Shown: positions 1 to 45,005 of the stretch, piece after piece | Layout: every line of letters starts with the position of its first letter | Numbering within the stretch: the first letter of the stretch is position 1 | Virus record (IMG/VR): IMGVR_UViG_3300037465_000480 | Source of the DNA: a virus | Direction: 5' to 3' (one strand) | DNA length: 64,000 nt | Position numbers and translations under genes: made by a program | Notes under the pieces: model-generated | The model's input: only the letters and a program-made list of their open reading frames with translations | Database searches by the model: none | What the model was told of the DNA's origin: nothing

Positions 1-180
1 ACGGATGCGAATGCAGGATATTCGTCAAATCGAAACACCTGTTACTGGACTCGTTTATCAAGGGGGTTCAGTGACTGGTTTTCATTGGCGTGCTAGGGAT
101 AAATAAAGCCCAATTGATACAAGAGCCTTTGTAAACAAGGGGGAGGATGGCTCCCTTGTCTTGTGTCCTTTTTTAGAAAT

Positions 181-245
181 AAAAAAACTCGCACATTCAT
201 ATATTATATTATATAATATAACAATGTGCGAGTTTCTAGTTTTAA
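181..245 (-). repeat. 65-bp nested palindromic element, copy 1 (inverted relative to copies 2 and 3)
   Basis: Arms AAACTCGCACATT (185-197) and AATGTGCGAGTTT (223-235) flank a 25-bp AT-rich spacer containing the palindrome TATATTATATAATATA; its reverse complement nearly equals 11341-11404. Confidence 0.9.
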
Positions 246-314
246 GACCATCAGTATAATAGCTATCGAAAAACAGGGGTTTGGGCAAGATGAACACCTA
301 ACCCCCCACCTCTC

Positions 315-337
315 ACCCCCCGCAAGGGGGTTTTGTT
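315..337 (+). terminator. Intrinsic terminator-like hairpin
   Basis: ACCCCCC-GCAA-GGGGGT followed by TTTGTT. Confidence 0.65.
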
Positions 338-359
338 ATCCAACAGCGGTGGGGGCATT

Positions 360-388
360 TTGATCTGGGGGGCATCTTGTGCTATACT
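360..388 (+). promoter_or_regulatory. Sigma70-type promoter with extended -10; predicted leaderless transcript starting at ATG 395
   Basis: TTGATC-17 bp-TATACT preceded by TGC; ATG lies 6 nt after the -10 and there is no Shine-Dalgarno. Confidence 0.65.
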
Positions 389-394
389 CATCTT

Positions 395-1108
395 ATGGGA
401 AACGTTACTGGCTGGATTAGCATAGATGACTGTCGATTGTGGGAGCGCAACCCTAACTTAGGGGATGTTCCCGCGATAAAGAGGAGCATTCAAGAATTCG
501 GTTTCCGAGGGGCTATTGCCCTGTGGCAAGATAACTTTGTCATGGGTGGCAATCATTCTGTGATGGCTCTGCGACAATTGCGAACCGAGGGATGGGAGCC
601 TTGGGGATCGGCGATTACCGCCACCTGGGAAGTTCCTTATATCGACATTTCCGATTTAGACCGAAAACAAGCCGAAAGCCTGGGGCTGGCTTTTAATCGT
701 ACTGCCCGCTTGGGGCATGACGACGATAAAATCCTGGCTGCTTTGCTGGCTGACTTGGAAAGCGACGATAACACCACCTTGCAAGATGTTATGCGCTATA
801 CCGTAGACGAAATTGACAGGATTACTTATGAGCCGGATGATCTCAAACCTGTTGGCGTGCCTAAAGATAGTGCAGGTACTGCGCGATCAACTTTTCGCAA
901 GATTAAACGGGCTTATGAAGGGCGCGATGTGCCTCGCCTGCTAAACTGGGGGGAACTCATGTTTCCTGTCCAAAAGGTTCTGTATGAAGCGGTACTGGCT
1001 TATTGCGAAAGCCAACCCGATATGAACAGGCGCGATGCTTTTCATCAATTGCTTAGACTCTCTCTCACTCATTTAGGCTTGCTAGAGGAGACAGAAGACC
1101 ATGCTTAA
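395..1108 (+). CDS. ParB/Srx-like nuclease-domain protein
   Basis: N-terminal WERNPN...AIKRSIQEFGF...MGGNH resembles the ParB N-terminal domain; start moved from TTG 377 to ATG 395. Confidence 0.75.
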   Translation: MGNVTGWISIDDCRLWERNPNLGDVPAIKRSIQEFGFRGAIALWQDNFVMGGNHSVMALRQLRTEGWEPWGSAITATWEVPYIDISDLDRKQAESLGLAFNRTARLGHDDDKILAALLADLESDDNTTLQDVMRYTVDEIDRITYEPDDLKPVGVPKDSAGTARSTFRKIKRAYEGRDVPRLLNWGELMFPVQKVLYEAVLAYCESQPDMNRRDAFHQLLRLSLTHLGLLEETEDHA

Positions 1109-2585
1109 AGTCGCCATTTTAGATGCCAATACTACCGGCGATGATACCACAGAAATGACTATTCACCTAACAAACAGTATGGTTGCCAATTGGTTGGCTT
1201 GGGAATTCGACAGCCGCAACGTCCCTATTTCTACGGATTATGCCACTAGCGACATCCTGTTTTTGGTCTACGCTGGGGCTGTCGATTGGCTGCCTGCCGT
1301 AAAACGCTTTTTGAAAAAACATGCTATCCCTAGTAGCCCTTCAGCCCGTAACCGGAAACCTTACATTATTACGGGGGGAGCTATAGACGTTGCTCCTTTT
1401 GTCGCCTTGAGCGTTGTTGACGCCTTAGCTGTAGGAGAGGCTTACCACTTTATCCGTTCCCTGATAGACCTATTAGAAAACGACAGTAGCCTAGAGGATA
1501 TTCGGGGATGGATTGTGGATTATCCCCATGCTATTGAACAAAGCCAGCTTTCCCCTTTAGCAGAAGACCCTGATTATCCTTATCTGTTGGCGTCGCCGCC
1601 CCCCAAGTTGGCATCCCCCGATGATTGGGTAGACTGGGAAGGGCAACCTTTAATCCGCAACGATGACAAGGTGGTGCGAATTGTGGCTGCCAAAGGGTGC
1701 CATTTGCGCTGTAAATTTTGCGCGACCACTTACCGCCAAACCTACCGCATTCATCCTCGGCAAGGCATGTTAGCCAAACAAGTGGAAGCCCTTAATGAGG
1801 CGGGAGAGCGCGTGAGCCTCATTACCAATGATGTTGGGGTGCTGCCCGCGCTCCATTTATTAGCTAACAAAGCGCAGCTGGATAGTCAGAGCTTGACCAT
1901 TAAATCAGTCAGAGACCCTGAAAACTTAGAGGCGATTATTGAAGCGAATACCAAGATTATTCGTTTTGGGGTAGAGGGCGTTTCCGAACGTGTCCGACAG
2001 GCTTTTGGCAAACCTATAGACGATGCCGAGCTAATTGACATCTTGGCTTATATCCATTCGCGACGCCGCAATAGCCAATTGTTTTTTATTGTCGGTAGCC
2101 CTTACGAAACCCGTGAGGATTGGGTAGCGCATGAGCGGTTTGTGCGTGCTCTTTTCAAACGGGTTGAATGGGGCGTCCTCAAGTTTAAGTACACGGCTTT
2201 TCAGCCTAACCCGCCGACCCCCTTAGCGAGGTTTTTGCCCGCCCGACAATACTACCGCAATATGGGGAAATTCAAAGATGACTATCTCAATGATTTTGTC
2301 AGCAGACATGGCCTCCTTATTTGGGCACGTAAACCCGATAACCTCATAGATACCTTGGCTGACGTGTACCACGTCCCGCGTGCTTATTTTCGCGAACTCT
2401 ATCACGATGAGGAAACCATAGACTTATTGCCTACTGTCGATATGGCACGGCGGGCGAAGTGGGAAGTAATCGACTGGCACTTAAGCCCTGATAAGCGATG
2501 GAACCTGGGGAATTCCTACGCCCGCACAATGGGGGCAATGGAACGCGCTCAACCTCAGTATGGGCTTGAAAAGTTAGAGGCTTGA
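1101..2585 (+). CDS. Radical SAM enzyme with B12-binding-like N-terminal region (TIGR03960-like)
   Basis: CxxxCxxC (GCHLRCKFC); AIP...RNRKPYIITGG...DALAVGE; GVEGVSERVR; FFIVGSPYETRED; FQPNPPTPL. Confidence 0.85.
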   Translation: MLKVAILDANTTGDDTTEMTIHLTNSMVANWLAWEFDSRNVPISTDYATSDILFLVYAGAVDWLPAVKRFLKKHAIPSSPSARNRKPYIITGGAIDVAPFVALSVVDALAVGEAYHFIRSLIDLLENDSSLEDIRGWIVDYPHAIEQSQLSPLAEDPDYPYLLASPPPKLASPDDWVDWEGQPLIRNDDKVVRIVAAKGCHLRCKFCATTYRQTYRIHPRQGMLAKQVEALNEAGERVSLITNDVGVLPALHLLANKAQLDSQSLTIKSVRDPENLEAIIEANTKIIRFGVEGVSERVRQAFGKPIDDAELIDILAYIHSRRRNSQLFFIVGSPYETREDWVAHERFVRALFKRVEWGVLKFKYTAFQPNPPTPLARFLPARQYYRNMGKFKDDYLNDFVSRHGLLIWARKPDNLIDTLADVYHVPRAYFRELYHDEETIDLLPTVDMARRAKWEVIDWHLSPDKRWNLGNSYARTMGAMERAQPQYGLEKLEA

Positions 2586-2587
2586 TC

Positions 2588-3130
2588 ATGGCAGCACCCC
2601 GAACGCAGGCACTTAAAGAATATCACCGAACCCAAATCGCCCAATTTTACCTGAAACAATATACTCAGGCAGAAATGGCGGATATGTTGGGTATCAGTAT
2701 TCAGACCGTTAATGCTGACCTCAAAGCAGTTCGGCATATGTGGGCTGAAAGTGCCATCTTCGATATGAACGAGGCAAAACAACGGGAGCTGGCACGAATA
2801 GACCAATTAGAACGCGAATACTGGCGGGCTTGGGAAGAAAGCCAAAAAGAACAAACCACTGCAAAAACCAGGGGGCGGATTGAGACGGAAGAAAGCGATG
2901 GGGACACCTACACTATCCCTGAGGCTTACGAAACCCAGCGGCAGCCCAGGTTGGGCGACCCCCGCTATCTGCAAGGCGTCCAATGGTGTATTCAGCAACG
3001 CTGTAAAATCTTGGGTATTGAGGCTCCGACTCGACAGGACATTACGTCAGGCAATCATCCCCTGTTTGATTTAGCCTCGTTATCAGAAAGTCAACTAGAG
3101 GCTTTAGCCAGAGGGTTGCAAGACGGATGA
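2588..3130 (+). CDS. terS: Terminase small subunit (HTH)
   Basis: HTH-like YTQAEMADMLGISIQTVNADL; overlaps the start of terL. Confidence 0.75.
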   Translation: MAAPRTQALKEYHRTQIAQFYLKQYTQAEMADMLGISIQTVNADLKAVRHMWAESAIFDMNEAKQRELARIDQLEREYWRAWEESQKEQTTAKTRGRIETEESDGDTYTIPEAYETQRQPRLGDPRYLQGVQWCIQQRCKILGIEAPTRQDITSGNHPLFDLASLSESQLEALARGLQDG

Positions 3131-4542
3131 TTGCGCCAGGCAGCCGCAGCCTGCTAAAAAAAAGGGTCTCCCAAGAGTTAGCCTGGCGGCAGTATCAAAA
3201 AGACGTTTTCCTTTTTGTCGACGACTGTTGCCAAATTTACGATAACCTCGCCCAAACCTGGATACCCTTTGTCCTCTGGGATTTTCAAAAAGAGGCTTTA
3301 GCCACCATCCAAGATAACCGCCTGGTGGTTTGTCTCAAGGCTCGCCAGGTAGGGTTAAGTTGGTTGGTTGTCGCCTATCTCCTACACGAATGCTTGTTTT
3401 CCCCTATTCAAGATATTCTCATTTTTTCCAGGCGCGAAACCGAAAGCATCCACTTGCTACAGGAACGGCTTATTGCTATGTATCATCATTTGCCTTATTG
3501 GGTCAGGCAGCGCGTGAGCATCGCCCAGCAAAATCAAACCTATCTCAAATTGAACAATGGCTCGGTAGTCAGGGCTTTCCCAACGGGGGTAGGCGATACC
3601 TATACAGCCACCATTGCTTTTGTGGATGAGGCTGACCTTGCTCCCGATATTGACGTTACCATTGCCAGCGTCAAGCCAACAATTGATGCTGGGGGGCAAC
3701 TGATTTTGCTAGGGAGGGTTAACAAAAGAAAGCCTGGGAGTCCCTTCAAGCAGATTTTCCAGTCTGCCAGCTTGGGCGAAAATGGTTATGCCCCGCTCTT
3801 TATCCCTTGGCATAGCCACCCCCTAAGGACGGCAGCCTGGTATGACAAGATCAAGCAGGAAGCTATCAATTTAGATGACGTGTACGAACACTACCCCAGC
3901 ACGCCAGAAGAAGCCTTATTGCCAGCCAGTACTGGAAGGGTTTATCCTGAGTTTTCTATATCAGGAAATGTTTCCCCTGAGGTAGCTTACGCCCCTGCTT
4001 ATGAAGTGGAATGGTGGTGTGACGATGGCTATACCAATCCGTTGGTCATCTTGTTTGCCCAACGGCGACATTGGCAGGGGCAGCCCGACTGCTTGGTTAT
4101 CTTTGACGAAATTTATATTACCCGCACTGACCATGACGAGGCTATTCGGTTAGCCTTGCAAAAGCCCTATGCCCCCCCTAGTGTCATCTGGTGTGACCCA
4201 TCAGCCACGCGGCTAATCTCCCGATTTACCCATGTTCGTAATTATGGTATGCTGGATTATGGTATCAAGCCATTTTCAGCCAGAGTTAACGCAGCCGTTA
4301 ATAAAGTGGCTGACGGCATCAAAGCAGTGAGATCAAGTATTGGCAGTGAACGGACGCCACGACGCCTAATCATTTCTACCCGCTGCCAAAATGTTATTAG
4401 GGAAATGAGCCAATACATGTTGTCCGAACATGGCACCCTTGGGGGAGACCCGCAGCCTATCAAAGAAAACGACCATACCTGTGATGCTATTCGTTATGGT
4501 CATACCCCTAACTTGTATAAGGACGGGTGGTTAAGTGAGTAA
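3127..4542 (+). CDS. terL: Terminase large subunit
   Basis: Walker A region KARQVGLSW, Walker B AFVDEAD, nuclease motifs CDDGYTNP and NDHTCDAIRY. Confidence 0.92.
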   Translation: MIAPGSRSLLKKRVSQELAWRQYQKDVFLFVDDCCQIYDNLAQTWIPFVLWDFQKEALATIQDNRLVVCLKARQVGLSWLVVAYLLHECLFSPIQDILIFSRRETESIHLLQERLIAMYHHLPYWVRQRVSIAQQNQTYLKLNNGSVVRAFPTGVGDTYTATIAFVDEADLAPDIDVTIASVKPTIDAGGQLILLGRVNKRKPGSPFKQIFQSASLGENGYAPLFIPWHSHPLRTAAWYDKIKQEAINLDDVYEHYPSTPEEALLPASTGRVYPEFSISGNVSPEVAYAPAYEVEWWCDDGYTNPLVILFAQRRHWQGQPDCLVIFDEIYITRTDHDEAIRLALQKPYAPPSVIWCDPSATRLISRFTHVRNYGMLDYGIKPFSARVNAAVNKVADGIKAVRSSIGSERTPRRLIISTRCQNVIREMSQYMLSEHGTLGGDPQPIKENDHTCDAIRYGHTPNLYKDGWLSE

Positions 4543-6535
4543 CGGCAACAGAACCATTCCGCCCACCCCTATTCCCGAAATTGCGGCTATTGAAACGATA
4601 CAACAGCCAGGGGTGATTGATTCTCCTTTAGCCATGGGGGCGGGCAGCCCTATAGATGGGTGGTTACTGGCTTATGACCCGAACCGCTTGTCTTTGCCCC
4701 CTTGGTGGTCTAAAGGAAGAGACCGCGTACTGCGTCAATATGTGAGAAGTTCCCTTATCCTTAGCAGTGTTGTGTATCAACGGGCGGCAGTCAATAAAAA
4801 TACGGGCTGGCGCATTGAAGTGAAAAATGACCAAGCGGAACCGAGTCTTGACCACTATACAGCCCTCATTCAAAATGCGCAATTTGGTGAGGGGTTTCGT
4901 GCTTTTATTGAACTGGTTACTCAGGATTTACTTTGCCAAGATAACGGCGCATTTATAGAACTGATTGGCGAGGGCGAAGAGCAAGCCTATAGTTATGGGG
5001 GGCAAACGTTCCGCGCCTTAGGGTGGCTCCCTAAGGAACGCATTATTGGTTTTGCCCATATCGACTCCGCCCAGGTTTGGCGAACCAATAATCGAGAATT
5101 CCCTTTTGTGTATACCAACCCCTGGAATGGCAAATTTACCATTCTGCATTGGTCGCGCATGATAGGGCTGTCCCAACTGACCCAACCTATCCAGCGAGGG
5201 CGGGGTATTGGACTGTGTGCTGCCAGCAGGGCTTTTGCTGCTTTGGAAATCATGGAGACCAGTAATCAATATGTGACCGAAAAAATGACAGGGCAATCCC
5301 CCGAAATTGCGATTGCTAAAGGGGTGGCAATTGAAGCTATCCGTGCTGCCTTAAAAGACAATGCTATAGAACGGGACGCTCGCGGGATGGTTCGCTATAA
5401 AGGCATTGCCTTTGTCGAAGGCGACCATTTGCCCAGCGGCGACCCCAGCATTCAGATTGTCGGCATAAAAAACACACCTGACGGGTGGGAACGTGAAAAG
5501 GAAATGACACTGTCCATCTATATGATCGCGATGGCATTTGCGACTGACGTAAGGGACTTGGGGTGGGCTGCACAGTATGCAGGAGACACAAAAGCTGACG
5601 CCGAAGTGCAAGATCAAAAAACGGCTAATCGCGGGCGGGCTGACATCATGCGTGATCTGGCTGATGTTATCACGCGCCGTATTCTCCCCCCAGGGCTGGC
5701 TTTTGAATTCGATGAACAGGATGATTTAGCCGACCGCCACAAAGCAGAAATTGAACATATCAGGGCGCAAACCCGCAGCCTGCGCATTACCAGCGGGGAA
5801 ATTACCCCTCATGAGGCGCGAGAAATTGCAGCCAAAACGGGCGACCTCGATCAGCGTTATTTGGCTAGCCATGTGGTGAGCGATGAAAGCAGTAATCCCC
5901 TTGTGGAATTACCAGAGGAGAAAGCCACTTCTTTTAGCAGCCTACACCATCAATTCATGGTCAAGTTCAGAGCAGCTTTAAATCGGTATCGCAAGACGGG
6001 GAATTTTGCTACCTTGCTAAACGAATGTCGCCCCCTCATCAATAACTATGGCACACGGGCTTTTTTGCAAGGCGTTAATGATGGGGGAGCCAGAGGAGCC
6101 AAGCTGTCTGACTTGACAGCCGAAGAGCTTGGCAAAATGCAGAGCCTTATTCAGCAACAAATAGACTACTTAAATAATCTAAGAGGGCTAGAAATTGATA
6201 GTCGCGCTGTTGCCAGCGAACGCGCCGAATTGTGGGCCAACAAGGGGTTAGACCATATCTACTTTTCTGGTATGTTGGCAGGTAATCAAAACGCCAATTT
6301 AGAATGGTTCTTAGGAGCCACAGAAAAGCACTGTCGAGATTGTCTCAAATACGCTGGGCGCGTGTACCGTGCTAAGACGTGGGAAAAGCATAAGATTGTG
6401 CCACGATCAGGCTTGCTAGAATGTAAGGGGTATCGTTGCGACTGTCGCTTTGAACGCAGTGATAAGCCCCTTAATCGGGGTAGACCACCTTCCCCCAGTG
6501 GCGCGAAAAAAGGACAGCACCACCATGAGCATTAG
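4535..6535 (+). CDS. Portal protein fused to a C-terminal MuF/SPP1 gp7-like head morphogenesis domain
   Basis: Follows terL; portal-like DLLCQDNGAFIEL; C-terminal EKHCRDC...CKGYRCDCRF Cys motif typical of MuF-like domains; 666 aa. Confidence 0.78.
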   Translation: MSNGNRTIPPTPIPEIAAIETIQQPGVIDSPLAMGAGSPIDGWLLAYDPNRLSLPPWWSKGRDRVLRQYVRSSLILSSVVYQRAAVNKNTGWRIEVKNDQAEPSLDHYTALIQNAQFGEGFRAFIELVTQDLLCQDNGAFIELIGEGEEQAYSYGGQTFRALGWLPKERIIGFAHIDSAQVWRTNNREFPFVYTNPWNGKFTILHWSRMIGLSQLTQPIQRGRGIGLCAASRAFAALEIMETSNQYVTEKMTGQSPEIAIAKGVAIEAIRAALKDNAIERDARGMVRYKGIAFVEGDHLPSGDPSIQIVGIKNTPDGWEREKEMTLSIYMIAMAFATDVRDLGWAAQYAGDTKADAEVQDQKTANRGRADIMRDLADVITRRILPPGLAFEFDEQDDLADRHKAEIEHIRAQTRSLRITSGEITPHEAREIAAKTGDLDQRYLASHVVSDESSNPLVELPEEKATSFSSLHHQFMVKFRAALNRYRKTGNFATLLNECRPLINNYGTRAFLQGVNDGGARGAKLSDLTAEELGKMQSLIQQQIDYLNNLRGLEIDSRAVASERAELWANKGLDHIYFSGMLAGNQNANLEWFLGATEKHCRDCLKYAGRVYRAKTWEKHKIVPRSGLLECKGYRCDCRFERSDKPLNRGRPPSPSGAKKGQHHHEH

Positions 6536-7022
6536 AGTCGTTGTAAAAAAAATAGGTAGACCACGCAAAAAACCTGCTAATGCTCCTGCCCTCATACAAG
6601 CAGCCTTAGATAAAGAGGCAGAGGCTGTCAAAAAGGACTTGGCTAGCCCCACCAAAACATGGGCACGAAAACCTTTATTTGTGGTTCGGAGAAAAAGGAA
6701 ATATACATTTGAAGTAACCACTGGTGATTTTATTTATGGTCTCCTTGACCAAGGAACGGTACCGCATATCATCGCAGCCAAAAACGCGCCCACCCTCGCT
6801 TTCAATACGCGCCCTAAATTTTCACCTAAAACCACCCCCCACAGCTTGCGGGCTAAAAAAGGAAAGAAACCAGTATCCTCCCCCGTTTTTCCTCTGGCAG
6901 TATACCACCCTGGTACTGAAGCTAGAGAATGGGTTGTCTTGGCAAATGAGAGAAGTCGTATTAGACTAAAGAAAGCAATGGATAAAATAGCGTCAAAATT
7001 AGCCAAGGGAAAAGCCTCATGA
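6525..7022 (+). CDS. Basic virion protein, possibly HK97 gp10-like neck/tail-completion protein
   Basis: Lys/Arg-rich; YGLLDQGT...HIIAAK...LAF and VYHPGTEAR motifs; ATG at 6525 after AAAGGA. Confidence 0.45.
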   Translation: MSIRVVVKKIGRPRKKPANAPALIQAALDKEAEAVKKDLASPTKTWARKPLFVVRRKRKYTFEVTTGDFIYGLLDQGTVPHIIAAKNAPTLAFNTRPKFSPKTTPHSLRAKKGKKPVSSPVFPLAVYHPGTEAREWVVLANERSRIRLKKAMDKIASKLAKGKAS

Positions 7023-8239
7023 GCCAGACCAAAGACAGACAAGCTATTTACGAAATGATTTTGATAGATACTGGCGACCCTGATTTAGCCAAGGCGGTGG
7101 CGGATGTTTATCAAAAGGCAACCATGCCCAGCAGCTTACTAGAGCGGTTCCGTGCCTTCCTCATGGGCGAAACATCCCCATTGCCCCAACAAGGGTTTCG
7201 GTTATTGGACGATGAAAACAAAACGTTTGTGGCTTGGTACAGCAACACCTACCAGGATATGGAGAGGGAATTTTTAGCGCGAGCAGGCTTTGAAAACGAC
7301 ATCGCTTTCATGGATGCCACAGGCGAATACCCTGACTTGATTTTCTTTCATCTTGACTCAGCTATTTTGGGGAAGGCTTATGGCGTTTTCCTGATTGGTA
7401 ATTTTGTAGTGGCTGTAGGAGAAATTGACACCCCATTAGGGTTAGCTTTATATGATAAAATCAAAGGTGAACAATGGGAAATGTCGCACGGGTTTTTCTA
7501 TGACCCCGAAACGTTTGATGGGGAAACCTATCATGATTTTCACACCTTTGAGATTAGCATTTTACCGCCAGGCACAGCCGCTAACCCGTTAACGGCTTTT
7601 GACTTGCCATATCGGGCAATAGAGGAAGATACAGACATGAGTAAATCACGCGTAAATCCTAAAGCGGTTGCCCGATTGCGGCAGCTTTTGGAAGGCACCG
7701 CCATTACCGTAGAAGAAGTGCTAGCCACAGGGTTAGCAGCCACAGAAGAGGCAGACCTGCGAGGCTTAGCTAGTCGACAGCGAACCGCAGCCCTACCGAC
7801 CCGCCGTAAGCCTGAGATGCCGATGGCGGCTGACGGCGAGGAAATGCTTTCTGTGGAAATTTTGCTAGAACGGATCGTCGCTTTGGAAGAGGCTGTTCAA
7901 AGCATCTTGGCTGCTCTACCTACAGAACCCATAGCAGAAGAGGAAGAGGCTTTGCCTGCCGAAGACGAAAACCCAGCTTCTGTTTCTGAGGAGACCTTGC
8001 GTGCCTTAGGGGAAACGATTACCGCGCAGCTGGGCAAAAGCCTGATTGACTACCTCGATAATCGTCTCGCACAAGTCGGCATTTTGCCTAATCAACAAAG
8101 AGGCGGATTGCATCGCGGGGCTGATTTGAGAGAGGCGTTTGACGATTACCAGGGGCAAGGGGCGAGCGAAGAGCAGGTGCTTTCTCCTTTAGAGCAAACC
8201 AGCCGTGCTATTGCGCAACGGCTACGGCATGACAGTTAA
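7019..8239 (+). CDS. Prohead protease (HK97-type) fused to an acidic scaffold
   Basis: FFHLD...MSHGF...FEISILPPGTAANPLT protease motifs; acidic helical C-terminal half; lies before the capsid gene. Confidence 0.78.
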   Translation: MSQTKDRQAIYEMILIDTGDPDLAKAVADVYQKATMPSSLLERFRAFLMGETSPLPQQGFRLLDDENKTFVAWYSNTYQDMEREFLARAGFENDIAFMDATGEYPDLIFFHLDSAILGKAYGVFLIGNFVVAVGEIDTPLGLALYDKIKGEQWEMSHGFFYDPETFDGETYHDFHTFEISILPPGTAANPLTAFDLPYRAIEEDTDMSKSRVNPKAVARLRQLLEGTAITVEEVLATGLAATEEADLRGLASRQRTAALPTRRKPEMPMAADGEEMLSVEILLERIVALEEAVQSILAALPTEPIAEEEEALPAEDENPASVSEETLRALGETITAQLGKSLIDYLDNRLAQVGILPNQQRGGLHRGADLREAFDDYQGQGASEEQVLSPLEQTSRAIAQRLRHDS

Positions 8240-8271
8240 GTTAGCCAGAAAGCGTTAGGAGGCGTCAGACT

Positions 8272-9876
8272 ATGCTAACTCATTTAGGACTAGACTATAT
8301 CAATCTCATCCGGCAAAAGGAACTTGATTTAGACGCCGCGTTAAGCCACGCCGCCCAGCAAGGCTATGGTAATAATCAAGTGCTTTTGCGCCAGCACCGT
8401 CGGGGGGGATTAGCCATCGGCTATCGCAATGATCCCCCGCTTAACCCCCAATTGCCCTATATTCATGGGGCAGGTGGGTTGCTCTCTAACCCTGGACAAA
8501 ACCCCGCCATTTTTTCAGGGGTCGTACAGGCTGTCCCTGGGATGGCAACTTTCCTGCCCATCCTGCCCGATGTGGTCTTTTCCGATGACTACGGGGGCAA
8601 CGACCAACTTTTTATCACCGCTGTTACAGGAGTGACAGCAGGCGATGATAGCTGGACCAATCAACCCGATGCCGTTTGTGCTGACGCGCCTATTGCAGGG
8701 GTCATGAAAATGTGTACCCTCACCGCTCCTTATGGGCGGTTTAGCAAAGCCACCCGCGAAATTGACCGTAAACGGATTGGCAGACTCACCAACCGAGGCG
8801 AAGCTACCGATTATGCCTTGCAAAATGCGCCTATGGCGGATGACCCCTTTACCCCCTCTCTTGTGCCACGTGGCACAGGCGATTGGCTCAACCGCGAACT
8901 ACAGGTGCGTTTCTTTGAGGCAGCGATGGGGTTTCAGCGGATGATTATCCCTCTGGCTTACTCAGGCAACCCCAGCAATAACAAAGCAGGGGGTGGCAGC
9001 CGCCAGTTTTCAGGTTTTGACTTGCTGTACAACACAGGCAAAGTAGACGGGTTTACCTCGGTTCCCTGCCCTGGGATGGACAGCCTGGTAGTAAGTATGG
9101 GGTCAGTGAATGTGAATGAGGCTGATGCCAACGGGTTGTTTTTCTATGACCACTTAGAAGGGGTCATGCGCTACCTGCGTAGCTTAGCCAGAAAAACGGG
9201 GCTAGACCCTGTTGAGTGGGTCATTTCGATGAGGGAAGATTTGTTTTACACCCTCACTGACTTGCTGCCTGTTCAGCAATATATCAAACTCATTTCGACT
9301 GTCAACACCATCAATAATGGCGATTATGGCGGTCAATTGAATTTAGCAGGGGCAGATGTTCAGGCCCTCCGCTACGAAATGCGCAATAACTACAGGCTGC
9401 CTATTGACGGATTACCTGTGCAAGTGATTGTGGACGATGGCATCGCCGAGACTGCGGGGTCTCCTGCCAGCGAATATGTGAGCGATGTCTACATTCATGC
9501 CGTCAGTGTCTTAGGTGGTGTGCCAACCTTGTATTGGCAATTCTTCAACTTTGCCAATGGGCAGGGCGAAGAATTCGATAGCTTGGTCGGAAACGATAAA
9601 TCGTTTACTACTGACGGCGGGCGGTTCTATTGGTCAAGCAACTTCAAAAACGGCTGCCTGCAAATGCAGTGGACGACCGAACCGCGTTTAGTCCAGCATG
9701 TGCCTTTCCTCTGTGCACGGCTCGATAATGTGGCGTATAAACCGACTATCCATACCCGTAGTCCGTTCCCCGCTGACGGCAACTTCTACAATGGTGGACG
9801 AACGAACGGTTCTATGGGGCGGTTCTATCCTGATTGGTCGCCTTCGACAGGCGTTAACTTGCCAGTTATCAAATAA
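8272..9876 (+). CDS. Major capsid protein
   Basis: 534 aa directly after the protease/scaffold; strong RBS (AGGAGG); followed by a terminator. Confidence 0.75.
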   Translation: MLTHLGLDYINLIRQKELDLDAALSHAAQQGYGNNQVLLRQHRRGGLAIGYRNDPPLNPQLPYIHGAGGLLSNPGQNPAIFSGVVQAVPGMATFLPILPDVVFSDDYGGNDQLFITAVTGVTAGDDSWTNQPDAVCADAPIAGVMKMCTLTAPYGRFSKATREIDRKRIGRLTNRGEATDYALQNAPMADDPFTPSLVPRGTGDWLNRELQVRFFEAAMGFQRMIIPLAYSGNPSNNKAGGGSRQFSGFDLLYNTGKVDGFTSVPCPGMDSLVVSMGSVNVNEADANGLFFYDHLEGVMRYLRSLARKTGLDPVEWVISMREDLFYTLTDLLPVQQYIKLISTVNTINNGDYGGQLNLAGADVQALRYEMRNNYRLPIDGLPVQVIVDDGIAETAGSPASEYVSDVYIHAVSVLGGVPTLYWQFFNFANGQGEEFDSLVGNDKSFTTDGGRFYWSSNFKNGCLQMQWTTEPRLVQHVPFLCARLDNVAYKPTIHTRSPFPADGNFYNGGRTNGSMGRFYPDWSPSTGVNLPVIK

Positions 9877-9891
9877 GCTGGTTAGTGGTTA

Positions 9892-9919
9892 TCTGGCGGC
9901 AAAAGAGCCGCCAGATTTT
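9892..9919 (+). terminator. Intrinsic terminator after the capsid gene
   Basis: TCTGGCGGC-AAAAGA-GCCGCCAGA then TTTT. Confidence 0.7.
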
Positions 9920-9935
9920 CTGAAAGGCAACTCAC

Positions 9936-10232
9936 ATGGCAAGCAAGCCAATGATCATGGGCAGCCCAATTTCCTATCTGGCTTTCTCGCGTTATACATC
10001 CTTGGGAACCGCCCAAACGCTAACGCCTCCCTCTGCTGCGGATGGGGTGCTGATGCAAGCCGTTACCCAAAATGTCGTTTTTTCGATTGGGTCAACAGCC
10101 ACCGCCACCAATGGTTTTATTTTGCTGGCTGGAGCCGAGCCGACCCTCGTGACTTTCCCATCAGGAACCCCTCTTAGTGTTATCCAGCAAGCGGCAGGTG
10201 CTGAGCTGCGTATTCAGTGGATAAAACTATAA
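9936..10232 (+). CDS. Small beta-rich virion protein (possible capsid decoration protein)
   Basis: 98 aa directly after the capsid gene; beta-strand-like composition. Confidence 0.45.
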   Translation: MASKPMIMGSPISYLAFSRYTSLGTAQTLTPPSAADGVLMQAVTQNVVFSIGSTATATNGFILLAGAEPTLVTFPSGTPLSVIQQAAGAELRIQWIKL

Positions 10233-10235
10233 ACC

Positions 10236-10569
10236 ATGCCAAAAAGGCTTGATAGGTCAGCCGCTAGGTTGCGCCACCCCTCTACGAACCGTTTGGGGAT
10301 AGGGTCTTCTTTCAGGCACGCGCTATGATAGCCAAGGGAGCCACCATCTGACCGATAACAACACCGTGGGCAACGCGCCAGGCAAGAAAGCTAACGCGGC
10401 TGACTTTATCCGAGCGAATTCGGAATTTTTAAGCAGCGCTGACAATACCGACCTAAGCACGGGGGACAGTGATTTTACCTTCATAGCGTGGGGACGTTCT
10501 GAAAGTCCAGCAATAGGCGTGGTGGCGGGGAGATTGGACAAATGGACTGCGATATGTCCAAAGCGTTAG
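10236..10569 (+). pseudogene. Frameshifted, truncated relic of a LamG/concanavalin-A-like virion gene
   Basis: ATG 10236 frame (MPKRLDRS...GIGSSF) stops at 10328; the +1 frame reads SGTRYDSQGSHHLTDNNTVGNAPGKKANAADFIRANSEFLSSADNTDLSTGDSDFTFIAW, resembling the start of LamG-type domains, and stops at 10569. Confidence 0.5.
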
Positions 10570-10706
10570 ATGATGCCTTAGACCGTGTAACCGAATTGTC
10601 CGATTATGGCATTCCTCTACCTGTGCTGCCTCATTCCCTTGCTGATGATCGTTAGCATCCTCAACGAAATGAAACGTATGCTATCTGTATTCTAGCCTGT
10701 TGCCTC

Positions 10707-10736
10707 TTGTTTCCTAACCATACACTAGTGTATACT
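10707..10736 (+). promoter_or_regulatory. Internal promoter for the 10771 gene
   Basis: TTGTTT-18 bp-TATACT; spacer CCTAACCATACACTAGTG shares CTAAC...GTG with the promoters at 42657 and 43745. Confidence 0.55.
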
Positions 10737-10770
10737 ACACTAAAGATAAGGAGATAAAGGAGTATCCGTT

Positions 10771-11321
10771 ATGTTCGGTAACGATCCCCGTATTCGATTA
10801 ATGTGCTGGCTCGATAAGCGTAAGCCAGTAGACCAGCAATTAATCCAGTCCATCCCTGACTTAAAAAAAAACGCCTTTTCACGTCTTCTATCCGCGATGG
10901 GCTAAGGCTTATCCTGGATTTGCGCAATGGCAATATTGACGTGTTGCTTGAATTGTTTCCCTGGGTAAAAGAGATATTGGGCAGCAAATCTGACCACGCC
11001 CCGAACACAGATAGCGGGCAAAGAGGAAACCCCTTGCCTAGCGATGAAACCTTACAAGCTATGTTGGATAGATTAGAGCATTTGATTATGAAAAGTCAAA
11101 CAGGGTTGCCAGCCGCCCCAGTCCCTAAAAGGATAACGGGTGCTGACAGGACGCTAAGCGATTCCCTGCCCTTGGATGAGGATGATTTGTTGGCATCTAT
11201 AGATATGAAAGCCGATAAGGACGCTGGCAAACGTGCCAGTGAAAATCTGCTCAAAAGTCTCATCGCTCTCCAACAGATGCCTACTAGCACCCCCAGAGAG
11301 AAACTCGGGAGTCGCGCCTAA
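10771..11321 (+). CDS. Hypothetical protein split by a -1 frameshift at an A9 tract (10863-10871)
   Basis: RBS AAGGAG then ATG 10771 (MFGNDPRIRLMCWLDKRKP...IPDLKK) stops at 10905; the -1 frame opens at 10860 just after a TGA and reads KKKRLFTSSIRDGLRLILDLRNGNIDVLLELFPW to 11321. Confidence 0.65.
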
Positions 11322-11340
11322 GCTATGCCACAGAGAGATA

Positions 11341-11404
11341 TTAAAACTAGAAACTCGCACATTGTTATATTATATAATATAATATATGAATGTGCTAGTT
11401 TTTT
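11341..11404 (+). repeat. 65-bp nested palindromic element, copy 2
   Basis: TTAAAACTAGAAACTCGCACATTGTTATATTATATAATATAATATATGAATGTGCTAGTTTTTT, immediately upstream of the GT2 gene. Confidence 0.9.
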
Positions 11405-11413
11405 AATTCACAA

Positions 11414-12229
11414 ATGGAAAAGGGTATCATGCACAGCAACCCGTTAGCGATTTCCTTGATTACCTACAATCGCCCCGATGCCTTCCTCAGGGTCGTGCAT
11501 TCGATAGAACAGTTTGTGTATTATGAAAAACGGCTTATCACTTGGGTTATTGGGGACGATGGGTCAGACAGTCCTTATGTCAGTGATTGGGCGGCTACTC
11601 ATCCCCATCTCAATACCGTGCTCTTGAAACACCATCGCCTAGGGATGCCTGGCAATTGGAATAGGACACTTGCGGAAGCGCATTCCTACGCCGATTACGT
11701 GCTGGCTTGTCAAGACGATTGGTTGTTTACTTGTCCTGTTGATTTACATCTGGCTATAGCCTTTTTAGAAGATAATCCCGAATACGGGATGGTTCGTTAT
11801 CATAAGCTCGGCGGTCATGTAGGCTTGGTTGGCGTTATCAAGCAATGGAATACACACCACAGATGGCAAGGGAAATATAGCGACACGCCTTTTGACTATG
11901 ACCCTGCATTGGTGACTTTTTGGGAACTCCTCCCCCCCTTTGGCGACAGCAACACCTATAGCCCTTACAGTGGGGGCGTCCATTTGAGAACCAAGCGGTT
12001 CACGCAGTTTTATGGCGATTATCCAGAGGGGGAAAAATTCAGCTTAGCAGAAATGGAGCATTTTCGCAGGGTGAATACGTCTTTGCGGGAAAACCTCAAT
12101 ATCGCCCCGCGTGTAGCGATGTTTCCTTATTTCGTTCTCAGCCGTTTTCAAGACATCAGCGGGGGAAGTTACCGCGATACGTCTATAGAAAGTGAGACGC
12201 TATATGTTGAAAAAAATCAATCAGCATAA
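11414..12229 (+). CDS. Glycosyltransferase family 2 (GT-A fold)
   Basis: ISLITYNRP, IGDDGS, GMPGNWN and YVLACQDDW motifs; alternative start ATG 11429. Confidence 0.82.
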   Translation: MEKGIMHSNPLAISLITYNRPDAFLRVVHSIEQFVYYEKRLITWVIGDDGSDSPYVSDWAATHPHLNTVLLKHHRLGMPGNWNRTLAEAHSYADYVLACQDDWLFTCPVDLHLAIAFLEDNPEYGMVRYHKLGGHVGLVGVIKQWNTHHRWQGKYSDTPFDYDPALVTFWELLPPFGDSNTYSPYSGGVHLRTKRFTQFYGDYPEGEKFSLAEMEHFRRVNTSLRENLNIAPRVAMFPYFVLSRFQDISGGSYRDTSIESETLYVEKNQSA

Positions 12230-12383
12230 CCTGGACTGGCTAAGGATAGGAATAGCTATTTTCCCCGTTTTGCTTATCTTAAGTTGGGTAGGCTGGCAAG
12301 CCATTGGCACACTAGGGCTGTGCTTAGTGCCTATAGCATCTTTAGCCTTTCCCTTATGGTTTATGGTAATCCTGCCGCGTTAG
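12192..12383 (+). CDS. Small membrane protein
   Basis: Two hydrophobic segments; overlaps the end of the GT2 gene. Confidence 0.45.
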   Translation: MRRYMLKKINQHNLDWLRIGIAIFPVLLILSWVGWQAIGTLGLCLVPIASLAFPLWFMVILPR

Positions 12384-12567
12384 GGGCTGTCATGAATATG
12401 AAAAATGGATACCCTTAGGAGTGGTGGTGTTTTGTCTGCTCGGTATAGCCTTTAGAGGTTATCAACGCGGGGGGATACTACACGCCATTTTACCGCCTAT
12501 GGTTTCTTTGATGACACCTATTATCTTAAAGGTGTTTGTCCTGAGGGGATTGTAAAAGGGAGACCCT

Positions 12568-12822
12568 ATGAGCCAAGAGAAAATACCCGTTTACCTACTG
12601 CAAAAAGATTTTGTCGATCAAAGTGTCGGCATCTATATCAATTTGGCAGACGCCCAACAAGCCGCCGAACAAGATAACCAGGCTTTTTTAAACTGGATCA
12701 GGAGCGAACACGGGAGAAAGTGGACAGCTTATGCTAAGCACAGCACTGCCCGCTATATCATAGAAGAAATTTGGATCGATTGGGCTTATTTACAGTGGGA
12801 CATTGGGAAAGCGACACCATGA
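12568..12822 (+). CDS. Hypothetical protein
   Basis: RBS AAGGGAG; its stop overlaps the start of the next gene (ATGA). Confidence 0.6.
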   Translation: MSQEKIPVYLLQKDFVDQSVGIYINLADAQQAAEQDNQAFLNWIRSEHGRKWTAYAKHSTARYIIEEIWIDWAYLQWDIGKATP

Positions 12823-15209
12823 AACGATTTTGGGGCATTCCTACTGTAGAAAGCCTACAAGACCATCGCAACTATGGCATTGCTCAGGTGGTCTTGGCTT
12901 TAGCTAAGCACCTGCCTGCTTTTGGCTGGGAATATACTGCTAACCCTCAGGATGCTATCTTACACGTTCATCATGGGGGAGAGGGAGAAGGGGCTAGCGA
13001 TGTGGCTATTGTACATGGCTTGCATCCTACTGCTGATATGCCAGAGCGCAGCGCCATTTTTGAAGAAATTAATCGGCGCGTTATCCAGGATGTTATCGCA
13101 GCCAGACAGGTGATTGTCCCCAGCCGTTGGGTGGCTGACTTTTTCCAAAGGGACATGCTCCTCTCGCCACAGGTTATCCAGTGGGGGGTAAGTGAGGAAT
13201 TTACCCCTGGCTCCCCACAGGGCTATATTCTGTGGAATAAAAACAGACAGGATTTTGTCTGTAATCCTGTTTGGATGAACAAGCTAGCCGCTTTACTGCC
13301 TCAGCATGTATTGGTCAGTACGTTCGGACAAGAAACCCATAACGTGCGCATTATCGGCAGGCAACCTTTTGAAAAAATGGTCAATTGGGTTAGGGGAGCC
13401 AGCCTGTATTTAGCAACGACCCGCGAAACAGGCGATATAGGCAGCCGTGAGGCTCTGGCTTGTGGTGTGCCTGTGGTCGGGTTTGCCCAAGGGGCATTAC
13501 TGGATTTTATACAGCATGGTGAAAATGGATATTTAGCCGAACCTGGCGATATAGAGGGCTTAGCTAAAGGGGTTGAATACTGCTGGGTTCATCGGGAAAG
13601 AATGAGCCGGCAAGCTCTCTATTCAGCCCAAACCTTTAATTGGGAAAAAACAGCCCAGCAAGTGGCTCATGTTTTCGATTTAGCTTTGCAGGCTAAACGT
13701 CCCTCCCCTAAAAAACTTAGTGTCGTTATCCCGTGCTATAACTATGGTCATTTGGTTAAGCGGGCTGTGGATAGTGTCCTCAAAGCCTTGGCGCATTTTG
13801 CGCTAACCACTTGGGAAATTATCATGATAGATGATTGTTCTACCGATGATAGTTGGCAGGTGCTGGCTGGATTGCATGATGGACACCATCTCTTTGCCAT
13901 GCGGCAACCAGCCAATGGGGGGGTAGCTCGCGCCAGAAATGAGGGAATTAAACAAGCCGCAGGAGAATATATTTTTTGCTTAGATGCCGATGACCAGGTA
14001 TCGCCCCCCATCTTTGATATTCTCATAGAGGCTTTGGATAGAGATCGTTTGTTAGGGATAGCTTATACCGCGTTAGGGTTAGAGCAGGGTGGGCAAACGG
14101 GTTTTCCGCCCGCAGAAGTCAATTACGATCTGCAATTCGCAGGCAGTAATCAAATCCCTACTGCCTGCTTGTTTCGGCGCGAAGACTGGCAACGCGTGGG
14201 GGGCTATAGAAGTTATATGCAACCGGCTGAGGATGCCGATTTGTGGACGCGCATGATTGGCATTACTGGGCGCAAAGCCGCCAGGGTTAGCGATGCCCCC
14301 TTGTTTATTTACAATGTCCATTCAGGTAGCTTGACCAGTGCTTACCGCCAGCAAGGAAAAGCTGACCCCTTTATGGAGCGGGGGCAAATAGGATGGGGGA
14401 CTCATCGCCCTATAGCTGCCCCACCCCCTAAAGGAAAAATCAGCAATCCTGTGTCCCATCGTGATATGCCTTTGTTGTATGTGGATATAAGCCAAGCTAG
14501 CCAAGAGGTCTTAGACTGGTTATTGATGCAATCCTTTAGAGATTGGACATTGGACGATAATCGTAATGCCCCCTTGGTATTGCGGCTCGGACAAAAGCCG
14601 CCTTCGCCTGCTTATGATTGGCTAGAGAGGGCCTTACAACAAACCTTGCTGGGAGTAAAAGATAACCCTGATGGATTGCCTATGGTGACGGCTTATCAAC
14701 TGGATAAGGATATTCTTTTGGGTGCCGACTGTAGAGAAGAGCCTTTATCAAGGTCCACTCTCCAGTTTTATGATGGGCGAAAATGTGATACAGTAGGAGT
14801 AATCATGGCGACTTGTTGCGGACGTACCATCATTAAGCAAAGGATAGCTCCAATGGATGAAAACGATTTTGTTTTGGTAGAATTGACGACAGGGGGAGCC
14901 GGCTTGGTGTGGGTTGGCAGCCCAACGGGAAAACGGTTTGATCCTGGCATCCCTGCGGAGAAAGCCTATGGGCGGCGTAAGCGCGGAGACCGCTTTTATG
15001 TACACCGCGAAGATTGGGAGGCCGCCCCGCAGATTTTTAAGCCAGTCCCTTTAGAGGCAGTACCTATTGCCGTGGCGTCTCCTGCCCCCCCTAGCGATGA
15101 CGCCCCGCCGCTGGTGCCCGTTTTAGAAGAGCCCCTTGAGGAAGTTGAACCGCCTACCCCCCCTAAACCGCTGGCTAAGCTCAAAGGGCGTGAGATAAGG
15201 CATGGCTGA
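12819..15209 (+). CDS. Bifunctional glycosyltransferase: GT4 (GT-B) + GT2 (GT-A) + C-terminal extension
   Basis: GT4 E-x7-E motif (ETGDIGSRE) and ALACGVPVV; GT2 SVVIPCYN, IDDCSTDDS, ARARNEG, CLDADD, EDADLW; tail begins MATCCG and ends Pro/Glu-rich. Confidence 0.9.
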   Translation: MKRFWGIPTVESLQDHRNYGIAQVVLALAKHLPAFGWEYTANPQDAILHVHHGGEGEGASDVAIVHGLHPTADMPERSAIFEEINRRVIQDVIAARQVIVPSRWVADFFQRDMLLSPQVIQWGVSEEFTPGSPQGYILWNKNRQDFVCNPVWMNKLAALLPQHVLVSTFGQETHNVRIIGRQPFEKMVNWVRGASLYLATTRETGDIGSREALACGVPVVGFAQGALLDFIQHGENGYLAEPGDIEGLAKGVEYCWVHRERMSRQALYSAQTFNWEKTAQQVAHVFDLALQAKRPSPKKLSVVIPCYNYGHLVKRAVDSVLKALAHFALTTWEIIMIDDCSTDDSWQVLAGLHDGHHLFAMRQPANGGVARARNEGIKQAAGEYIFCLDADDQVSPPIFDILIEALDRDRLLGIAYTALGLEQGGQTGFPPAEVNYDLQFAGSNQIPTACLFRREDWQRVGGYRSYMQPAEDADLWTRMIGITGRKAARVSDAPLFIYNVHSGSLTSAYRQQGKADPFMERGQIGWGTHRPIAAPPPKGKISNPVSHRDMPLLYVDISQASQEVLDWLLMQSFRDWTLDDNRNAPLVLRLGQKPPSPAYDWLERALQQTLLGVKDNPDGLPMVTAYQLDKDILLGADCREEPLSRSTLQFYDGRKCDTVGVIMATCCGRTIIKQRIAPMDENDFVLVELTTGGAGLVWVGSPTGKRFDPGIPAEKAYGRRKRGDRFYVHREDWEAAPQIFKPVPLEAVPIAVASPAPPSDDAPPLVPVLEEPLEEVEPPTPPKPLAKLKGREIRHG

Positions 15210-15522
15210 TTTTTGGGTCGTTTTAGCCTTGGTAAGGGTAGTTGTGCTTATCCAGCAAGATAGGGGGCCTCTGGAAATCTTGCGCACTTTGCGCCTGCTG
15301 CTTAGGCTGACAACCTTACAAGCTCATCCGCCTGAAGCCCCTCAGGAAATGTGGAATGAGAACCCTGTAGCCGATTTGTTTAGTTGCTATTGGTGTTTAT
15401 CCTTATGGCTTGGCGTGGTGGCTTGTTTTTGGCTAGAACGTCCAGCTTGGTATGCCCTGGCGTATTCAGGAGCAACCAGCTTGGTTTTATTAGGAAAAGA
15501 TTATGTTGGCAGTCACCACTAA
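15202..15522 (+). CDS. Small membrane protein, DUF1360-like
   Basis: DLFSCYWCLSLW (CxxC) motif with hydrophobic helices. Confidence 0.6.
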   Translation: MADFWVVLALVRVVVLIQQDRGPLEILRTLRLLLRLTTLQAHPPEAPQEMWNENPVADLFSCYWCLSLWLGVVACFWLERPAWYALAYSGATSLVLLGKDYVGSHH

Positions 15523-16747: not shown

Positions 16748-17060
16748 TCTTGTCCAGAGAACCTATACCGATAAGGCGGGCTATGAGCATGTGGTATGGC
16801 TACCTGACTATGTGCAAGATGATTTTACAGGTGGCATTCCTGTTAGTGTTGATATACAAGCCTTAGGGCTTTCCGTAGCGATCCAAAAAACCTTATGGGA
16901 TAAAGGTATCATTTTTGTCTCGGACTGGATAAGCAAGCCAGTTTTCACTACAATTTATGCTATCTTTAGAGGTGAACATCCTGAATTAACCGAACGCGAA
17001 GCTAAACTGGCTTTGCTTAATCTCATCGAAACGGTGCGGGCAACCGCCAATAATGGGTAA
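16740..17060 (+). CDS. Hypothetical protein (tail region)
   Basis: RBS AGGAG; overlaps the previous gene. Confidence 0.55.
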   Translation: MLNLVQRTYTDKAGYEHVVWLPDYVQDDFTGGIPVSVDIQALGLSVAIQKTLWDKGIIFVSDWISKPVFTTIYAIFRGEHPELTEREAKLALLNLIETVRATANNG

Positions 17061-17071
17061 AGAGGTGGAAT

Positions 17072-18577: not shown

Positions 18578-18599
18578 TAAGCTAAGCAAGGAAGATGGG

Positions 18600-38427: not shown

Positions 38428-38456
38428 TAGCACAAAAAGCAGTCCTCTTCTATAAT
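38428..38456 (+). promoter_or_regulatory. Promoter of the endolysin gene, predicted leaderless
   Basis: TAGCAC-17 bp-TATAAT; ATG 38464 lies 7 nt downstream with no Shine-Dalgarno. Confidence 0.55.
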
Positions 38457-38463
38457 GTATTGT

Positions 38464-44782: not shown

Positions 44783-44785
44783 ATC

Positions 44786-44914: not shown

Positions 44915-44975
44915 TCCGAACATCTGATGCCGGCATCCTCCCCAATACTTACCGTGTTCATCTATGAGCTGAAAA

Positions 44976-45005
44976 GGTATAGCCTCATCTGCATGAGGCT
45001 ATACC
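44976..45005. other. 13-bp perfect hairpin
   Basis: GGTATAGCCTCAT-CTGC-ATGAGGCTATACC. Confidence 0.8.

Follow-up and report, generated by a model that had tools for sequence, protein, structure and literature searches.

To our knowledge, the known post-replicative base modifications are installed by SN2 methyltransferases, by glycosyl or amino-acid transferases and by oxygen-dependent dioxygenases, and radical S-adenosylmethionine (SAM) enzymes take part only as a tailoring isomerase. ParB proteins reportedly direct DNA modification, a view for which others cite Iyer et al. 2013. Among phage thymine dioxygenases, one subclass (5mYOX176 with ParB176) depends on a ParB-like activator, and does so only when the DNA is double-stranded (O'Toole et al., PNAS 2026, PMC13229309). 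This activator consists of a nucleotide-binding domain (NBD) and a C-terminal domain (CTD), has no obvious DNA-binding domain and tolerates mutations in the nucleoside triphosphate (NTP) site; terminases are frequent neighbours of these ParB-dependent dioxygenases (PMC13229309). A survey of the ParB-CTPase fold reported phage ParB-methyltransferase fusions and did not mention radical SAM enzymes (Kaljevic et al. 2025, PMC12704722). The sole radical SAM enzyme shown to act in placing a modification on DNA is gp53 of Pseudomonas phage M6, an N-alpha-glycinylthymidine isomerase (Lee et al. 2021, PMC8989533). Here, we analyse a pair of overlapping genes, one ParB-like and one encoding a radical SAM enzyme, found in a 64-kb stretch of DNA (IMG/VR record IMGVR_UViG_3300037465_000480; the whole stretch is referred to as the window). 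The phage genome it represents is complete, circularly assembled (or permuted), uncultured and from freshwater, and the pair stands at the start of its late packaging operon.

The ParB-like gene (395–1108, + strand, 237 amino acids) and the radical SAM gene (1101–2585, + strand, 494 amino acids) overlap by 8 nucleotides, and the ATG of the latter sits inside ...CCATGCTTAA of the former. The longest ORF of the ParB-like gene spans 377–1108 from an alternative TTG at 377; given that an identical database protein, P0089, has 237 amino acids, the ATG at 395 is likely the true start. The radical SAM stop overlaps by 4 nucleotides with a terS-like gene (2582–3130, + strand, 182 amino acids) that starts with TTG and has an alternative ATG at 2588. 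It encodes a helix-turn-helix (HTH) protein with weak HTH, sigma-70 region 4 and Terminase_5 matches, placed before TerL. The TerL gene (3127–4542, + strand, 471 amino acids) shares an ATGA overlap with the terS-like gene and matches PHROG 2 (E 7e-23) and six further TerL PHROGs. All parts of the arrangement given in the preliminary description, overlapping ParB-like and radical SAM genes coupled to terS-terL, were thus confirmed. Its statement that no queCDEF, dpdA, TET/JBP or DNA methyltransferase gene is recognisable elsewhere agrees with our searches: Pfam and PHROGs detected no further DNA-modification gene in 30 other window ORFs tested, many of which are orphans, so that such genes may have escaped detection. 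Nor was a ParA gene found among the window ORFs tested.

The pair resembles the 5mYOX-ParB systems in that an enzyme is paired with a small ParB-fold protein of the same NBD-CTD layout, with no obvious HTH and with terminases as neighbours. Unlike in those systems, the presumed catalyst belongs to the oxygen-sensitive radical SAM enzymes and has a domain of the cobalamin type, in place of an Fe(II)/2-oxoglutarate dioxygenase, and no glycosyltransferase or other tailoring genes accompany the pair. No TET/JBP-type Fe(II)/2-oxoglutarate domain was detected in the pair or in the 30 other window ORFs tested. The ParB_N-methyltransferase fusions (PHROG 498) likewise couple a ParB-fold domain to a SAM-using enzyme in the same slot before terS-TerL, but the window pair comprises two separate proteins and would use radical chemistry instead of SN2 transfer to N6, N4 or C5. 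M6 gp53, for its part, depends on 5-hydroxymethyldeoxyuridine (5-hmdU) together with a kinase and an amino-acid transferase, and nothing of this set was found beside the window pair. The pair was initially presented as a candidate new modification system; ParB-partnered phage DNA-modifying enzymes as such are already published (PMC13229309), and what is new here is the class of enzyme, so far unconnected with direct modification of DNA, together with its link to type IV-B CRISPR cassettes. Our literature search found no paper describing a ParB-like, radical SAM and terminase association, nor any on TIGR03960 or DUF2344.

Relatives of the window enzyme were found in 84 of the 90%-identity clusters, all metagenomic and most of 470–500 amino acids, and 77 of the 50%-identity representatives had E ≤ 1e-30. 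They form two subfamilies, a long one that includes the window enzyme and a short one (about 405–435 amino acids), and the nearest ESM Atlas clusters are 84–100% viral. By tblastn against 50,697 cultured-phage records, the window enzyme gave no match; with the enzyme and a short-subfamily member as queries, only weak partial matches appeared in cultured phages, to Streptomyces phage SF3 and Microcystis phage MaAM05, so this search yielded no cultured phage that carries the pair. We fetched 65 loci (L numbers below), called and clustered their genes, and retained 40 non-redundant loci of the viral family, 7 of them cut by a contig edge. The neighbourhood survey, which the preliminary description had proposed as a check of ParB/terminase linkage, was strongly positive. 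The gene directly upstream of the enzyme was ParB-like in 27 of the 33 informative loci, csf3 in three and another gene in three; counting redundant loci, ParB-like genes stood there in 36, of which 29 are non-redundant. In nearly all loci, the ParB-like stop overlaps the enzyme start by 4–26 nucleotides. A TerL gene followed downstream on the same strand within one or two genes in 27 of the 40 non-redundant loci and within six genes in 34, while six had no TerL nearby.

Given that the ParB-like/radical SAM/terminase order recurs in 29 non-redundant loci of other contigs, it does not reflect chance. The downstream TerLs belong to at least five PHROG families (2, 9, 38, 979 and 3717), so the pair holds its place across unrelated packaging modules. 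In the enzyme tree, the viral proteins form a branch of viral and prophage-like contigs separate from the TIGR03960-type cellular proteins (support 87/64), and since each of the two deep viral clades contains ParB-linked enzymes, the association with ParB probably goes back to the ancestor of the family. Orthologues of the terS-like gene come after the radical SAM gene in L001, L024 and L038. The window terS-like protein is much closer to those of L038 (2872–3396, E 4e-37) and L024 (1957–2511, E 4e-35) than one would expect from the radical SAM enzymes next to them, which share about 28% identity and fall into different subfamilies; this argues that the modification pair and the packaging genes reassort independently. 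Two loci also carry a methyltransferase: in L034 (4029–5216), terS is separated from the radical SAM pair by a ParB-N6/N4-methyltransferase fusion (PHROG 498, E 2e-93), and in L033 (10994–12193), a second ParB_N-methyltransferase fusion (PHROG 498, E 7e-66) lies four genes downstream of the pair. Known DNA methylases thus use the same slot. In L034, two different ParB-partnered enzymes adjoin before terS.

The window enzyme belongs to the radical SAM superfamily by its PF04055 match (56.4 bits against a cut-off of 29.5). Its CxxxCxxC motif (C200, C204 and C207) is invariant in an alignment of 29 homologues (A1), as are GG (92–93) and GE (112–113) motifs that follow the Rossmann strands. C200, C204 and C207 are the only conserved cysteines in the family, no N-domain cysteine column exceeding 52%, which excludes an auxiliary cluster and a methylthiotransferase; the MiaB/RimO/MtaB assignment was rejected also for lack of a TRAM or UPF0004 match. 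Assignments to QueE/7-deazaguanine or TET/JBP enzymes were rejected because there were no family matches, and so was a spore photoproduct lyase (SPL)-like one, SPL itself matching the core only (Z 10). The family is basic, with a mean isoelectric point (pI) of 8.4 and a core charge of +7. In the 50%-identity library, four giant proteins of 1,820–2,331 amino acids (P0173, P0177, P0205 and P0210) contain a radical SAM core and match the family profile at about E 1e-23 to 1e-26, these matches falling within several matched stretches.

In the AlphaFold model (predicted local distance difference test, pLDDT, 89.5), the enzyme consists of a Rossmann, cobalamin-domain-like N-domain (about residues 1–135) followed by a linker, a radical SAM core (residues 189–380) and a helical C-domain (residues 381–480). 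The closest solved structure was the cobalamin-dependent methylase MgmA (9ccb; Z 22.3 over 357 residues, model residues 3–426, root-mean-square deviation 3.4 Å, 17% identity), and the superposition spans both the Rossmann and core domains. The next matches were AprD4 (Z 17.5), CysS (17.2), MiaB (17.1), TsrM (16.7) and OxsB (16.1), about 5 Z units lower, and TsrM, OxsB, TokK and CysS superpose on the model from residue 1. At the level of the fold, the enzyme therefore shows the class B build of cobalamin-dependent radical SAM enzymes, a Rossmann N-domain before the core, as do MgmA, TsrM, TokK, CysS and OxsB; unlike in MgmA, its C-terminal domain is of a different kind. The best NCBIfam match was likewise TIGR04014 (MgmA), with 36.6 bits against a cut-off of 360, and several other B12-type radical SAM families in NCBIfam matched weakly, far under their cut-offs. 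We regard the cobalamin-type fold as present in the model and cobalamin binding as putative.

The enzyme had been described as TIGR03960-like, B12-type and not QueE-like. Kinship and fold bear this out, but membership does not: TIGR03960 gave 24.3 bits against a cut-off of 462.3, over the core only, and the B12-binding profile PF02310 is missing as well, as discussed below. PF19864 (Radical_SAM_N2) gave 19.5 bits on the window protein against a gathering score of 29; precomputed PF19864 matches are present in about one-third of the homologues and in half of the members of the nearest Atlas clusters. By hhalign against eight TIGR03960-like cellular paralogues, which themselves score 55–150 bits on TIGR03960 and are thus sub-threshold relatives, residues 18–392 aligned with 99.7% probability (E 1.6e-25). 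In the ESM Atlas, the enzyme reached a TM score of 0.80 to bacterial proteins with PF19864 and PF04055, some also with DUF2344. Judged by these profile alignments, the window enzyme is a distant homologue of the TIGR03960-like proteins, similar over the N-domain and core. It differs from TIGR03960/PF19864 proteins in lacking a DUF2344 part, in its separate viral branch and in its ParB or Csf partners; a DUF2344 (TIGR03936) partner is absent both as a fusion, the enzyme ending at 494 amino acids, and as a neighbour, the adjacent genes being ParB-like and terS-like. We know of no function for the TIGR03960/PF19864 radical SAM proteins, which are often fused to DUF2344.

The ParB-like partner matches PHROG 723 and 620 (E 1e-21 and 5e-19). 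PF02195 gave no match on the window protein itself; it matches the orthologue in L014 (32.6 against 26.3 bits). The structural model (pLDDT 84.8) retrieved ParB-CDP (6sdk), Myxococcus xanthus ParB, Noc, KorB and PadC as top Foldseek matches in the PDB, and the partner is predicted to have a ParB/Srx N-terminal fold of the CTPase type. The NBD-type N-terminal domain is followed by a poorly ordered, variable linker and a conserved C-terminal alpha-beta-beta-alpha-alpha domain of about 65 amino acids. When 30 partners linked to radical SAM genes were aligned (A3), a conserved [ST]-x-[WF]-x-x-[MVI] helix was seen just before the C-terminal domain; 24 of the 30 retain the GxxR arginine, which the window protein has lost (GGNHS). 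Compared with the ParB176 activator, whose NTP-site residues are dispensable, the window partner has lost part of those residues. It is acidic (pI 4.9; mean of the radical-SAM-linked partners, 4.8), and it diverges much faster than the enzyme: between L001 and the window, the partners share 22% identity and the enzymes 55%. Residues 186–228, the last beta-alpha-alpha part, weakly resemble a ribbon-helix-helix (CopG) protein (ESM Atlas TM 0.45–0.52 over about 55 residues); such a likeness, if real, would give this acidic protein a dimeric DNA-binding element.

In three contigs, the ParB-like gene is replaced. In L003 (a 56-kb contig), L004/L008 (a 64.6-kb contig) and L007, an enzyme 42–46% identical to that of the window comes after csf3, without ParB, at the end of a type IV-like CRISPR cassette that comprises a csf1-like gene, a small gene at the cas11 place, csf2 and csf3 (L003, 3404–8444; L004, 3114–7491, the same as in L008; L007, 4676–9431). 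There are matches to Csf1 (E 1e-4), Csf2 (1e-14 to 1e-18) and Csf3 (1e-11 to 1e-20), and two of these contigs also have a Cas6 gene (E 3e-10 and 6e-15). None of the scores reaches its curated cut-off, which makes this a divergent cassette. No CRISPR array was detected near the Csf-linked orthologues within the 11–13 kb fetched. In L003, the cassette lies directly upstream of the terS, TerL and portal genes. The three Csf-linked enzymes form one clade (99/93), sister to the ParB-linked clade of the window; csf genes are absent from the window itself. In subtype IV-B, csf3 is followed by a CysH-like gene, and given that the radical SAM gene directly follows csf3 here, it occupies this slot. The cassettes thus resemble subtype IV-B in being array-less, with the radical SAM gene in the place of an accessory enzyme, and differ from it in that the CysH-like PP-loop protein is replaced and in the Cas6 gene of two contigs. 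From these gene orders, a ParB-fold adaptor and an RNA-guided nucleic-acid-binding complex appear to be interchangeable partners of one enzyme, and this exchange is the strongest argument for a nucleic-acid substrate.

Other genes lie around one of these cassettes. Downstream of the radical SAM gene in L004 (7567–10327), there are genes for a ParA-like ATPase, for a product that matches HTH_ParB weakly and for one DUF488 and one DUF5131 (Gp37/Gp68) protein, and upstream of the Csf-linked region there are integrase and Prim-Pol genes; this element may be a phage-plasmid. Beside the Prim-Pol gene (L008, 3965–4146), four imperfect copies of a GGGGGGTGATCGCA....TGCAAC unit look like replication-origin iterons, unlike a CRISPR array.

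The explanation we favour, tentatively and at a little short of an even chance, is a two-component DNA-marking module in which a ParB-fold protein gives access to duplex DNA and the enzyme performs just one radical step, for which cobalamin-dependent C-methylation is the likeliest chemistry. The pair would be co-expressed with the packaging genes as a nucleic-acid-modifying module, with the basic radical SAM enzyme as catalyst and the acidic ParB-fold protein, probably NTP-independent in the window, as its obligate adaptor or activator. The two would form a physical complex in which the ParB-fold protein opens duplex phage DNA to the enzyme, as the ParB-like activator of phage thymine dioxygenases does. 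One SAM would methylate cobalamin and a second, split at the [4Fe-4S] cluster, would yield a 5'-deoxyadenosyl radical, which would take a hydrogen from the substrate; the substrate radical would then accept the methyl group from methylcobalamin. The target may be a base or sugar carbon of newly replicated phage DNA, modified before packaging, and the mark might shield progeny DNA from host restriction. A one-step modification fits the absence of tailoring genes from most loci. That the pair modifies DNA, as previously suggested, is made more likely by the Csf swap in relatives and by the ParB-methyltransferase fusions in the same slot, but it is still an inference, and a protein substrate is a possible alternative. 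The more specific idea of a cobalamin-dependent radical SAM alkylase that acts directly on duplex DNA, delivered either by a ParB-fold adaptor or by a type IV complex guided by CRISPR RNA, we consider unlikely.

Several observations weigh against the DNA-marking module. On the side of the enzyme, PF02310 gave no match at E ≤ 0.1, and the fold alone does not decide cobalamin use, because AprD4 has the same Rossmann-type domain and does not use cobalamin. MgmA, the closest solved relative, acts on protein and not on DNA, and M6 gp53 is an SPL-like tailoring isomerase without a Rossmann domain, a type to which the window enzyme does not belong. On the side of the partner, no HTH_ParB match was obtained in the window protein, and in place of the central ParB HTH its model shows a helical linker and a small C-domain; acidic, HTH-less ParB-like partners may not bind DNA at all. 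Prediction of a complex between the enzyme and the ParB-like protein, using alignments A1 and A3, gave a score of 0.17 (mark 0.32) and is evidence neither way. The partner swap is equally compatible with an RNA substrate, since type IV-B complexes bind RNA. Finally, the window sequence occurs in two freshwater metagenome runs, solely as assembled contigs and without RNA.

MgmA methylates a glutamine of the archaeal protein methyl-coenzyme M reductase, and by analogy the enzyme might methylate or cross-link a residue of its ParB-like partner, the terminase, the portal or the capsid. That MgmA is both the closest structure and the best NCBIfam match speaks for a protein substrate, as do co-transcription of the pair with virion and packaging genes and the conserved [ST]-x-[WF]-x-x-[MVI] helix of the small acidic partner, which could be a recognition or substrate element. 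The identity to MgmA is just 17%, however, the Csf cassette that replaces the partner is nucleic-acid-guided and implausible as a protein substrate, and the TerL, terS and portal families vary while the enzyme is conserved, so that a conserved target besides the partner is unlikely; on balance, we regard a protein substrate as distinctly improbable. Less probable again is a role in RNA modification that would retune translation or gene expression late in infection, with tRNA or rRNA of the host, or an RNA to which the partner complex binds, as examples of targets. MiaB, RimO, MtaB and RlmN are among the structural neighbours, and the cellular TIGR03960-like relatives have no known function; type IV-B Csf complexes are also reported to assemble on RNA (PMC7937560). 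Against this, the enzyme has no TRAM or other RNA-binding domain and lacks the three methylthiotransferase N-domain cysteines, and both ParB-fold partners and the slot beside the terminase are otherwise tied to DNA enzymes, namely ParB-methyltransferase fusions and ParB-5mYOX (PMC13229309; PMC12704722).

An offensive or counter-defence effector, for which ParB or Csf would be the targeting device and which would damage or mark the DNA of a host or competitor or destroy a defence metabolite, seems to us very doubtful. Type IV CRISPR systems act in competition among mobile elements, according to a preprint (bioRxiv 10.1101/780106), but the PADLOC defence models gave no match for the enzymes and just one kind of match for the ParB domain, to the ParB portion of a model for a type II methyltransferase, and expression with the late packaging genes fits self-marking better than attack. 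Least probable of all is a packaging accessory. In this role, the pac/cos region would be the binding or marking site of the ParB-like protein, and nicking or other processing of DNA by the radical enzyme would allow the terminase to start. HNH or ParB-like nucleases assist some terminases, and the fixed, translationally coupled place directly before terS-TerL and the repeat- and hairpin-rich non-coding region just upstream agree with such a role; yet most phages package their DNA without the pair, the module is common to phages with at least five TerL families, six of the 40 loci have no TerL nearby, and we know of no radical SAM enzyme that serves packaging.

The window is a 45,312-bp sequence traversed 1.4 times: bases 1–18,688 repeat exactly from 45,313, with no mismatch over 18,688 positions. 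An identical second copy of the promoter-like site, the ParB-like gene and the radical SAM gene is accordingly found at 45672–47897 (+ strand), where the window wraps around the circular genome. Protein P0089, identical to the window ParB-like protein, is recorded on a contig of 90,748 bp; a contig of roughly double the genome length suggests a head-to-tail dimer of the genome in some assemblies. All large ORFs of the window are on the + strand, and they include a tailed-phage set: TerL (PHROG 2) and a portal-like gene, tail genes and a head-protein gene, and genes for a helicase, a primase and an M23 peptidase. The probable portal gene (4535–6535, + strand, 666 amino acids) overlaps TerL by 8 nucleotides; it has no direct family match and falls in the same BLAST cluster (c15) as an L003 gene carrying PF04860 (Phage_portal). 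The M23 peptidase (38455–39174) is a likely lysin. For the product of another gene (41403–42326), the likeness to phage integrases is confined to their N-terminal SAM-like domain (PHROG 1, residues 4–151), and a temperate lifestyle is possible on this similarity.

Upstream of the pair, coding density is low over about 900 bp (44,782–45,688, that is, up to window position 376), with several hairpins at the end of this region. It is closed by a terminator-like hairpin on the + strand (315–331; second copy, 45627–45643) with a C-rich stem, a GCAA loop and a T run. Just downstream lies a sigma-70-like promoter match, TTGATC-17-TATACT with an extended TG (360–388, + strand; second copy, 45672–45700). 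Of the promoter of its own that the preliminary description assigned to the pair, this consensus match stands, but it agrees at only 9 of 12 consensus positions, and such sites are not enriched in the region (4 against 2.5 ± 1.9 in shuffles). Because the –10 box ends 6 nucleotides before the ATG at 395, a transcript from this site would be leaderless or nearly so. The non-coding region also contains a near-perfect palindrome with 25-nucleotide arms and an AT-rich centre (185–235, also 45497–45547), a perfect 13-nucleotide inverted repeat (44976–45005) and a tandem GGGGGCATYTTG pair (351–379; second copy, 45663–45691) that overlaps the promoter-like site. Operators and terminators are possible roles for these elements, as is a site for packaging or replication.

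If the idea of an alkylase that acts directly on duplex DNA is right, the enzyme family would represent a new class of post-replicative DNA modification, in which a carbon-carbon bond is formed by radical chemistry. It would also give a first clue to the role of the accessory enzymes in array-less type IV-B CRISPR systems. A cobalamin-type radical SAM enzyme that stands alone and requires nothing but a ParB-fold helper would bring the alkylation of unactivated DNA carbons into the known chemistry. The exchange of ParB for Csf ties orphan phage ParB proteins to the type IV-B accessory enzymes. The module is compact, with two genes in 2.2 kb, and it is found in about 80 sequence clusters, so that candidates for expression are easily chosen. 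How restriction and CRISPR defence turn out is decided by the DNA modifications of phages, which have also repeatedly been a source of new enzymology and tools.

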